Source: a virus. From it: a stretch of 64,000 nt of DNA. The notes under the pieces were generated by a model, which saw nothing but the letters and a program-made list of their open reading frames with translations, was not told the origin of the DNA and searched no databases. Each line of letters begins with the position of its first letter. Within the stretch, counting starts at the first letter, position 1. The position numbers were made by a program, and so were the translations under genes. Positions 16,360 through 20,815 of the stretch are shown one piece after another. Location of the stretch: positions 74,668 to 138,667 of the IMG/VR virus record IMGVR_UViG_3300023243_000009; one strand, given 5' to 3'.

Positions 16360-16566
16360 GTAATAATTAAATTTTTTGTACTCAATGTACATCATAACTG
16401 TTGTTGTGTAAACAGTGAGTTAAGTTTTTATAATATTACCATGTGTGCACTAGTAATAAATTGTTCTTTACTTAACCTCTACTCTCCCTAGTTTCTATTT
16501 CGAAATTCACCTAGCTATCTGAGATTTATATACCAGGGGATCATACCCTAGTCTTCATTTAATTTG

Positions 16567-16638
16567 AGCCTCCACAAGGAATCGAACCCTGTTAATCCGG
16601 GTACAAACCGGGTACATTACCATTTATGCTTTGGAGGC
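16567..16638 (-). tRNA. tRNA-Thr (TGT)
   Basis: CCCGG TT TGT AC CCGGA; GCCTCCA/TGGAGGC acceptor. Confidence 0.9.
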
Positions 16639-17062
16639 AAATATAAGAGAGGTTCGGGTCTTTCGAGGTTTCTAGAAATATCTGGGACTGGAGATAAACC
16701 TTTATCTTATTCCAGCTTGTCCTAGCTTCACTTACTCTCTTAATATTATAAGTTAGAATGGTTGTTTGAATCCCTTTTCAGTTCACCCTTGAACGTCTAA
16801 CTTTATATTTTACTTCTAATTCTACCCAATACTTCTGTATGGACTAGTATCTAAACTTTTAACGCGTATTAATTATTTAGCGTAGTTATTAAATAAGTTT
16901 TCTCTTATCAGCAGGGCCGGCATATCTTCCTTGGTTGTTTATACCTTGGTTTCAAATCCTTAGCTTACTTTAATAACAATCAGAAGCTCTTTATCCTTAC
17001 GGTCCCGTAGTTTTGGCTGCATACCAACTCCACAGTTAGGCCAGGGCTTTAAAGAGATTTTG

Positions 17063-17214
17063 TAGTCCTAGTTGGAATCGAACCAACCTTTGATAAGTTA
17101 CTTACTCTAATGCTTTAACTTTCTCTTCAAACTAGTATAAGAAGTGTTAAACCAAAAGCCGTAACGTTACCCCACTAGTAAGAGTAGGGGCGACCTACTA
17201 CTACATATAGGACT
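17063..17214 (-). ncRNA. tRNA-like RNA with a greatly expanded anticodon domain (152 nt)
   Basis: Perfect 7-bp acceptor AGTCCTA/TAGGACT, T-arm GTTGG TTCGATT CCAAC, ~110-nt interior. Confidence 0.7.
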
Positions 17215-17226
17215 ATTTTAATTTTG

Positions 17227-17329
17227 TAGCTATGTTAGGATTTGAACCTAATCCGGCTTTACAATACTAAGTGAACTTATCGTTAAACTTAACCTTGGAG
17301 AGGTGCTATCAACCAATGATCTCACAGCT
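17227..17329 (-). ncRNA. tRNA-like RNA with an oversized variable region (103 nt)
   Basis: Acceptor AGCTGTG/CATAGCT, T-arm TTAGG TTCAAAT CCTAA, D-like ATTGGTT, hairpin ACCT CTCCA AGGT. Confidence 0.65.
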
Positions 17330-17523
17330 ATATTTTTTGCACTAACAGTAACTAGCTTATCCTTTTAAATCTGTTAATACTTCGGAATCTAACCGCTCAT
17401 ATCTCAAGTCCAGCGTAAGGACTAATGCTTATATGTTCTTGATATGCAACCTTCTAGGTATAAAGTTCCCACCACTTCACATCTAGAGTAATAAGTCGTA
17501 GATGCTACTCGAGAAGTTTTTTG

Positions 17524-17605
17524 TACGTTTGGAGAGATTCGAACTCTCACACCTTAAGGCACTAGATTCTAAATCTAGCATGTCTACCAATTCCAACACA
17601 AACGC
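17524..17605 (-). tRNA. tRNA-Leu (TAG)
   Basis: CTAGA TT TAG AA TCTAG, long variable arm. Confidence 0.92.
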
Positions 17606-18319: not shown

Positions 18320-18829
18320 TTACATACCTAAATATGGTTTCCATTCATCCGGGATAAATGTTGTCTTTTTTAATAACATCAAATAATGCGGCCTTTGGGG
18401 TTTTGGTATTGGTTTACCATATTCCTTTAAAGTTAAATCCGCTTTTTCATTGTTACATCTTTTACAAGCAGTAACTAAATTATCCCATTTATTAGGCCCA
18501 CCTTTAGATTGAGGTATAACGTGATCTAACGTTAGAGTCTTGCGGTTTTCACAACCACAATACACACACTCATACCCATCTCTTTTGAATATATTCTCAC
18601 GTGTTAGAGGTACTTTATGAAAATTCATCTTCACATAAGTGTGTACTCTAATAATAGAGGGTTTAAAGATTGTTAATTCTGGGTTTACTACACCAAATGT
18701 TTCTGGGTATTCCGTTACTACATCAGCATTTCCCTTATATGAGATTACGAATGCCCTTTCTGTAGTAATAATACTCCTAGCAATATAACTAGTGTCAATT
18801 ACTAAGGTTTTGTCATAACGGTTTTTCAT
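18320..18829 (-). CDS. HNH endonuclease
   Basis: RENIFKRDGYECVYCG...LTLDHVIP.SKGG...WDNLVTACKRCNNEK. Confidence 0.92.
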   Translation of the reverse strand: MKNRYDKTLVIDTSYIARSIITTERAFVISYKGNADVVTEYPETFGVVNPELTIFKPSIIRVHTYVKMNFHKVPLTRENIFKRDGYECVYCGCENRKTLTLDHVIPQSKGGPNKWDNLVTACKRCNNEKADLTLKEYGKPIPKPQRPHYLMLLKKTTFIPDEWKPYLGM

Positions 18830-20495: not shown

Positions 20496-20567
20496 GTTAA
20501 CGTACAAGAATCGAACTTGCTTCTCCCGGCTCATTGCCGGGCGTGGTCACCATTCCACTAACGCCAA
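20496..20567 (-). tRNA. Atypical tRNA with anticodon ATG (His-like), A33
   Basis: Full cloverleaf; CCCGG CA ATG AG CCGGG; C73. Confidence 0.6.
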
Positions 20568-20750: not shown

Positions 20751-20815
20751 TAGTTATGATAGGATTCGAACCTATATCTTGCGGACCGCCATGTTAACCG
20801 TTACACCACACAACC
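20751..20815 (-). ncRNA. tRNA-like RNA lacking an anticodon loop (65 nt)
   Basis: GGTTGTG/CATAACT, D-loop AACGGTT, anticodon arm reduced to GCGG T CCGC, intact T-arm. Confidence 0.65.

Follow-up and report, generated by a model that had tools for sequence, protein, structure and literature searches.

Probable separable non-coding RNA cassettes between tRNA genes of an uncultured AT-rich phage

The window, the whole stretch of 64,000 nucleotides of DNA analysed here, is part of a 138.7-kb IMG/VR virus record (IMGVR_UViG_3300023243_000009, positions 74,668 to 138,667); it has a G+C content of about 30% and its large ORFs are all located on the minus strand. The genome encodes a tail sheath protein, a DNA polymerase, a DnaB-type helicase and GroEL. 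The source phage is an uncultured AT-rich myovirus, and its nearest cultured relative is the Flavobacterium phage immuto, with a tail-sheath identity of 53%. A tRNA array on the minus strand spans approximately 21.5-15.2 kb and contains 25 tRNA genes according to ARAGORN and 23 according to Rfam, for an overall count of 25-26. The array is bracketed by terminator-like hairpins at 21634-21605 and 15168-15141 on the minus strand, with none in between on this strand. Within it, a block at 16644-17056 on the minus strand is flanked by a 152-nt tRNA-like RNA and by tRNA-Thr(UGU). The features of this region are as follows.

18320-18829, minus strand: HNH endonuclease gene inside the tRNA array (Pfam HNH_5, E = 5e-16)
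17063-17214, minus strand: 152-nt tRNA-like RNA, the upstream neighbour of the block, conserved in the related loci L007, L008 and L070
16813-17056, minus strand: module A, about 245 nt, with two domains that were never seen apart
16987-17056, minus strand: domain 1 of module A, an irregular hairpin of about 70 nt with a fold predicted both from the window alone and by RNAalifold
16813-16986, minus strand: domain 2 of module A, a 174-nt four-way junction in the consensus fold of alignment A3
16750-16803, minus strand: module B, a 54-nt three-way junction with an 8-bp closing helix
16644-16742, minus strand: module C, 99 nt, a member of a pseudoknotted phage RNA family
16566-16638, minus strand: tRNA-Thr(UGU), the downstream neighbour, called by both Rfam and ARAGORN and starting 5 nt past the end of module C

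Four further segments of the array were recorded, all on the minus strand. A 103-nt element at 17224-17326, with a paired acceptor-like end and the T-arm-like sequence GGTTCAAATCC, was conserved in L007, L008, L070 and L085 and gave no call by ARAGORN or Rfam. An ORF-poor segment of about 190 nt at 17330-17520, right after tRNA-Leu(UAG), was conserved in L008, L085 and L005 and missing in L007, L003 and L002, and looks like another separable cassette. The tRNA-His with anticodon ATG that ARAGORN called at 20496-20567 had no Rfam match at the gathering score, and a 65-nt tRNA match at 20751-20815 was found by Rfam only.

The first-pass annotation had described the block as free of ORFs, and there was indeed no credible ORF across 16644-17056. 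The ORFs of at least 20 aa at the block were a 53-aa ORF antisense to tRNA-Thr and a 20-aa ORF at 16960-17022 on the minus strand. The latter was rejected as a gene, its ATG being gone in all relatives, as was a 16-aa ORF spotted by eye, which sits in a non-homologous insert of module A. The folding energy of the whole block was similar to that of shuffled sequences, with z values of -0.55 for the minus strand and 0.04 for the plus strand; it is the comparative data described below, not thermodynamics, that exclude chance structure.

Models for GOLLD, ROOL, RNase P and group I introns had been suggested as candidates for the block, and a search of the window with Rfam 15 at the gathering score returned tRNAs only. 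At E <= 10, neither the segment 16400-17600 nor a 101-nt query (16975-17075) gave anything relevant in the block. Specifically, the GOLLD, ROOL and OLE models had no match at the gathering score in the window or at E <= 10 in 16400-17600, Rfam gave no match to RNase P RNA, the group I intron or tmRNA, ARAGORN reported no tmRNA, and none of the ribozyme models in Rfam 15 matched the block. Paralogs of modules A, B and C were not found elsewhere in the array or genome. In blastn searches against cultured phages, the flanking tRNAs found matches and the block did not. No cultured phage carrying the modules was identified, either by blastn of the block and of a long-form member of the module C family, which had no match, or with the CMs R1 (module C family) and R2 (module B site) described below, which gave no significant match in immuto.

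To compare the block among related phages, contigs were gathered from IMG/VR and metagenomes using the HNH gene of the array and a sequence pattern for module B. The comparison set consisted of 12 distinct versions of the interval from tRNA-Leu(UAG) to tRNA-Thr(UGU), in which the modules are distributed as a mosaic.

L003 and L002: module B only, in an interval of 66-67 nt, the minimal state
L007, L005 and L059: module B plus other cassettes, without modules A and C
L008: the same as the window but for module A, which is cleanly missing (245 nt)
L006, L004 and L070: modules A and B, followed by an unrelated 40-nt hairpin in place of module C
L069: modules B and C
L085: the 5' part of the 152-nt tRNA-like RNA, joined by a deletion to what is left of module A, its last 22 nt (L085:3690-3740)

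All four combinations of presence and absence of A and C were thus found (B alone, A+B, B+C and A+B+C), and the spacer between the Leu and Thr tRNA genes is a hot spot of cassette insertion. Each cassette has its own terminal helix of 7-9 bp and is gained or lost as a unit among the related phages. The deletion in L085 further means that the 152-nt tRNA-like RNA and module A are both dispensable in that phage.

These data bear directly on the possibility of one large, ornate RNA of about 410 nt or more, resembling GOLLD or ROOL and with A, B and C as its domains. GOLLD and ROOL are single RNAs of about 580-800 nt or more, whereas the units found here are three in number, separable, and 245, 54 and 99 nt in size. 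The modules are contiguous and on one strand with no terminator between them, which is what a single RNA would look like, and the two families offer a precedent, since both are pseudoknotted RNAs of phages or prophages that make intermolecular contacts, have no known function and often lie near tRNA islands (PMC12286853). Against this, relatives with all four A/C combinations make a single 410-nt RNA untenable. Module C moreover is found by itself at other places in arrays and in phages that are unrelated, no covarying pair connects the modules, no Rfam model matched at E <= 10 and the folding energy is ordinary. We therefore regard one large RNA as extremely improbable. The first-pass annotation had left the choice between one large RNA and four small ones; several small RNAs agree with the comparison, as three independently inherited units and not four.

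The four helices that had been named as closing the modules fared unevenly, in that three of them are real and conserved and the closure proposed for the second module is not. The first is CTCTTTA/TAAAGAG at 17056-17050 / 16993-16987, which closes domain 1 of module A and shows compensatory changes in the relatives. Compared with L006, L004 and L070, the double changes in domain 1 were C-G to U-A and A-U to C-G. Also within domain 1, the proposed CC GTAA GG hairpin and the potential GGC/GCC and CCC/GGG pseudoknot pairs were invariant between relatives. Domain 1 starts 6 nt past the 3' end of the 152-nt tRNA-like RNA, and the same 6-nt distance from the 3' end of a tRNA or tRNA-like RNA is seen in every copy of module A; in L006 and L004, domain 1 comes directly after tRNA-Leu(UAG).

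This position is of interest since theta ribozymes, HDV-like elements of gut phages, sit directly beside phage tRNA genes at the tRNA 3' ends (PMC10879173), and one or more of the modules could accordingly be self-cleaving ribozymes that process the tRNA transcript. The start of domain 1, 6 nt past a tRNA-like 3' end, is the kind of position that theta ribozymes occupy (PMC10879173), and module C is compact and pseudoknotted with conserved unpaired purines. However, the models for the HDV, hammerhead, twister, pistol and hatchet ribozymes had no match at E <= 10, even with the 101-nt query, and the nested double pseudoknot of theta ribozymes (P1, P1.1, P2 and P3) was not recovered above chance level by a descriptor. 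The HDV-like descriptor found nothing at the junction, and its 12 matches inside module C compare with 0-41 in shuffled sequences. The outer helix of domain 1, with its compensatory changes, joins its 5' and 3' ends, and the HDV topology is incompatible with domain 1 because these ends are paired with each other. Taken together, this leaves self-cleavage with hardly any probability as an explanation of the modules.

For domain 2, the proposed closure CTTC..TTGTT/AACAA..GAAG did not hold, since relatives have unrelated sequence in place of the segment with its 3' half. The closing helix that is conserved is CTTCTGATT/AATTAGAAG at 16986-16978 / 16821-16813. It encloses three branches, of which the first contains a hypervariable insert of about 70 nt (about 16963-16891) that is non-homologous between two lineages, as represented by the window and L006. 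The second branch is a hairpin at 16880-16851, and the third a hairpin at 16847-16822 that abuts the closing strand and has a variable tip, replaced in L004. A single pair in domain 2 (columns 190/215 of alignment A3) goes through the states A-U, G-U and G-C.

Only four distinct sequences of module A were available (window, L006, L004 and L070), representing about two lineages. Two scans with exact patterns for further homologs returned known contigs only, and a looser pattern for domain 1 gave 24 matches, all of them unrelated. When the L006 sequence was placed on the window's own MFE fold, taken as the prior structure, 8 of the 9 changed pairs were still paired, 3 of them by double substitution, which by a rough estimate is unlikely under neutrality. 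A formal covariation test on the four sequences was not significant, as 78 and 30 of 500 shuffles reached the observed values. Module A is compatible with selection for base pairing, and it is dispensable in close relatives.

Module B, in contrast to A, was present in 12 of the 12 distinct close relatives, always between tRNA-Leu(UAG) and tRNA-Thr(UGU). It is located just 5' of tRNA-Thr, with only module C or a short hairpin intervening where these are present. The closing helix named in the first-pass annotation, AAGTTAGA/TCTAACTT at 16803-16796 / 16757-16750, encloses two hairpins, as had been described: one of the form GTTC-N6-GAAC, and one of 3 bp with a T-loop-like loop of 9 nt (ATTCAAACA). 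The module is 85-100% identical across the relatives, in which the tRNA-Thr itself has diverged much further, a comparison to be read with the reservation that the metagenome search pattern preset hairpin 1 as well as part of the closing helix, which are conserved there by construction. In the second hairpin, the GGT/ACC stem is changed to GAG/CTC in L002.

At the same site and in the same tRNA order, the more distant loci L009-L012, L015 and L016 contain an element of 75-88 nt, here called B'. It folds into a four-arm cloverleaf with MFE values of -20 to -24 kcal/mol (L011, L015, L016 and L010). The cloverleaf is closed by a helix of 9 bp and contains a D-like arm, an arm of 5 bp topped by a 6-nt loop, and a T-like arm of 3 bp with AUWC... 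in its loop and CGG/CCG or GGG/CCC as its stem. Module B is the version of B' without a D arm. In most of the searched loci that carry B, the CM R2, which was built from B' only, gave a match to B where one was expected, with E values from 4e-4 to 0.3; in the window and in three relatives with the 3' end of module A, the match extends into that A sequence. Alignments across the two forms should be read with caution, as MAFFT misplaces the 5' strands when B is aligned with B' and the CM alignment borrows the 3' strand of A in some rows. R2 had no match in 70 unrelated phage loci.

The resemblance of these elements to tRNAs lies in the cloverleaf of B', with its 9-bp acceptor-like and 3-bp T-like helices, and in the occupation of tRNA-sized slots with tRNA-like spacing, which the modules share. 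Elements that mimic tRNAs in processing are known, as in the mascRNA type. R2 also matched a genuine tRNA-His (L011:5292-5370, 28.7 bits), a hint that B' is derived from a tRNA. Neither B nor B' was matched by the tRNA model RF00005 at E <= 10 or called by ARAGORN; the central loop of both has 6 nt and not 7 as in a tRNA anticodon loop, and both are without the discriminator-CA tail seen on the real tRNAs of the array. Module B is hence best described as a clade-restricted, tRNA-shaped, non-decoding element that is tied to tRNA-Thr.

Unrelated end-paired cassettes were observed next to these elements in two loci: one before B at L059:188-270 on the minus strand, closed by AACAGGT/ACCTGTT, and one between B' and tRNA-Thr at L012:6955-7066, closed by AAACTATTA/TAATAGTTT. 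The 3' closing strand of module A (AATTAGAAG, 16813-16821), the 5' strand of B (AAGTTAGA, 16796-16803) and the 5' strand of B' (AATTAGAG) resemble one another, and TTAGAA of module A could pair instead with TTCTAA in the 3' strand of B. The likeness of these strands may be a trace of the origin of A or reflect an alternative fold.

Another way to read the modules is as decaying remnants without a present function, for example pseudogenes of tRNAs or scars left by mobile elements or homing endonucleases. Module A fits this reading best, being clade-restricted, replaced by non-homologous sequence in its centre and partly deleted in L085. Short direct repeats, CAAAAT/TAAAAT, flank its insertion or deletion, an HNH endonuclease gene (18320-18829) lies in the same array, and the CM for B' recognizes a tRNA-His. 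Decay does not predict that B should be conserved to 85-100% beside a more diverged tRNA-Thr, that B and C should have compensatory changes or that 8 of 9 changed pairs in A should remain paired, and we consider such an origin for the modules very unlikely.

Module C in the window is closed by the helix TAAGAGAG/CTCTCTTA at 16742-16735 / 16651-16644, which had been recognized previously and corresponds to the 8-bp closing helix P1. Inside it, four elements can be distinguished.

16725-16733, minus strand: 5' core AAGTGAAGC, directly after P1 (family consensus TAGTGAAGC)
16696-16701, minus strand: terminal-loop strand AGGTTT, one side of a long-range pairing
16666-16671, minus strand: tail strand AAACCT, which follows the variable hairpin directly on its 3' side and is the complement of the loop strand
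16653-16664, minus strand: 3' core GAAAGACCCGAA, an exact match, before the 3' strand of P1

The loop and tail strands form 6 of 6 Watson-Crick pairs. The window copy shows every feature of the family (P1, AAGUGAAGC, AGGUUU/AAACCU and GAAAGACCCGAA), each readable straight from the sequence, and it scored 80.6 bits with the CM R1, in the training set of which it was included. It is a single copy in the 138.7-kb genome. Two of the four differences between the C copies of the window and L008 make up a compensatory change from A-U to G-C in the top stem. The hairpin TC GAAA GA that had been proposed here did not survive the comparison, as it is part of the 3' core region and its flanking pairs are lost in L069. 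Two short matches between the 3' core and E. coli 23S rRNA were noted: GAAAGACCC is identical to positions 2057-2065, which we take to be in the peptidyl-transferase loop, and AGACCCGAAACC, found in some members, to positions 668-679. These short matches are probably coincidental.

With a profile of three close copies of C, further copies turned up downstream of tRNA-Leu(UAA) in L002 and of tRNA-Ser in L018. Scanning IMG/VR with the 3' core yielded at least 119 loci, and 39 of the 119 matches listed also had the 5' core within 220 nt; with loci from other searches added, there were at least 41 distinct members with both cores. R1 gave 63 matches, 57 of them distinct, in 100 sources, with E values from 1e-23 to 2e-3. 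The number of distinct members is thus at least 57, and the IMG/VR phage contigs with the family number at least 58. Since members of C, like those of B, were retrieved by exact sequence patterns, the columns covered by the patterns are conserved by construction, and this applies to the invariance of the 3' core among the retrieved C members, which was preset in the search pattern. The features of the family are a P1 helix of at least 8 bp that flanks two purine-rich cores, a near-invariant 5' core, (U/A)AGU(G/A)AAGC, and a hypervariable hairpin with a loop, RGGUUN, that pairs with NAACCY just 3' of the hairpin.

Base pairing in the family has been maintained despite extensive sequence change. 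Among the 41 members, the closing helix is 8-12 bp long and has 36 different sequences, and the complement between loop and tail is present. In alignment A6, which is model-fitted, 88% of the cells were paired as compared to 67% in shuffled alignments, with 0 of 500 shuffles reaching the observed value, and to 44-57% when the partners were slid; P1 in the model-fitted alignment was 94% paired, with double changes in 8 of its 9 pairs. A MAFFT alignment that included the long-range helix gave 86.8% paired versus 72.4% in shuffles (0 of 500). The long-range helix was 97% paired; its first pair was G-C in 24 of the 41 members, A-U in 16, G-U in 1 and A-C in 0, and its sixth pair was Watson-Crick in 35 of the 41, with three pair types. 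The hairpin varies from 45 to about 100 nt in length, and the loop is about 14 bp or more away from its partner strand. Because that strand is located at the hairpin's own base, the pairing of loop and tail needs a sharp bend, an alternative fold or an intermolecular contact.

Thirty of the 41 distinct members belong to tRNA arrays, where they share the strand of the tRNAs in every case and show no isotype preference, and for many of these the extracted interval is 0-8 nt from a neighbouring tRNA. The other 11 have no tRNA within 1.5 kb, several of them lying a few nucleotides after an ORF on the same strand. A scan of prokaryote genomes with the C core found the full architecture in 1 of 120 matches, for which reason the family looks essentially viral. 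It is absent from Rfam 15: at the gathering score, no Rfam family overlapped the members in 15 loci carrying C, where tRNAs and an unrelated permuted tmRNA were the only matches. The latter (RF04321, 64 bits) is located at L103:6477-6635 on the minus strand, in a contig with a member of the C family. Among the papers listed in a literature search for the core motifs, none was on phage RNA, and no paper with these motifs was found.

Covariation among homologs, on which the first-pass annotation had made its reading depend, was seen for modules B and C. Judged by the substitutions among their relatives, these two modules are under selection for base pairing.

The modules might also be cis-acting spacers in the precursor, either leaders or insulators against tRNA misfolding or guides for RNase P or RNase E, that are degraded after processing. 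Module B fits this best, as a leader of tRNA-Thr, since it is always just 5' of this gene, even in the diverged version of L006 and L004, and module C usually ends a few nucleotides before a tRNA. Yet more than a quarter of the C members (11 of 41) have no tRNA within 1.5 kb and come just after ORFs, and the neighbours of the remainder show no preference for any isotype. The near-invariant 5' core, the fixed 3' core and the covarying long-range pairing of C exceed the needs of a spacer, and module A is missing in most relatives with the flanking tRNAs unchanged. A role as disposable spacers therefore appears unlikely to us.

By context only, the closest known analogs of the modules would be rnaC (species 1, 139 nt) and rnaD (species 2, 119 nt), which are annotated as small stable RNAs in the tRNA cluster of phage T4. 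We know of no function for either of them. Like the modules, they are non-tRNA RNAs, of about 120-140 nt, beside tRNAs and a homing endonuclease gene, and the HNH gene within the window's array parallels segB in the T4 cluster; the likeness is one of context. In structure, rnaC has a canonical T arm, a feature that is missing from modules A and C and represented in B only by a T-loop-like hairpin. R1 had no match at E <= 1 in the T4 tRNA region (L214), R2 had none there either, and neither rnaC nor rnaD contains the C cores.

We consider it probable that the block consists of three independent non-coding RNA cassettes, A, B and C, in tRNA slots of the phage tRNA operon, and that it is not one RNA. 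The cassettes would be co-transcribed with the tRNAs, as suggested by the terminator-like hairpins that bound the array and are missing inside it, and could then be excised by the tRNA-maturation machinery. RNase P, in cleaving the following tRNA at its 5' end, would define where a cassette ends on the 3' side, and RNase E or RNase Z together with exonucleases may trim it to the closing helix, so that the cassettes would accumulate as separate small stable RNAs in the manner of rnaC and rnaD of T4. For module C, action in trans by way of the conserved single-stranded cores is most likely, a view favoured by the existence of stand-alone copies. Module B would be a degenerate tRNA-shaped element fixed to tRNA-Thr, with a role linked to this tRNA, and module A a lineage-specific accessory insertion.

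A more specific proposal is that C, and perhaps A and B, are processed by host enzymes in the same way as tRNAs, and that the loop-tail pairing of C is intermolecular and builds RNA-only assemblies, or that the RNAs serve as decoys for tRNA-directed defence nucleases of the host. We think this improbable; if true, copies of C would dimerise or form head-to-tail chains, as do ROOL and GOLLD.

Independent cassettes in tRNA slots, which is the reading we prefer, would have consequences for how such loci are annotated. The tRNA arrays of phages are usually annotated as tRNAs and spacers, and the spacer studied here appears to hold at least two RNA genes under structural selection. The defined cores, the 6-bp long-range pairing and the natural gain and loss variants provide handles for experiments. 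More broadly, the puzzle of the T4 species 1 and 2 RNAs, now 50 years old, would be extended to a broad class of portable, non-decoding RNAs that occupy tRNA slots.
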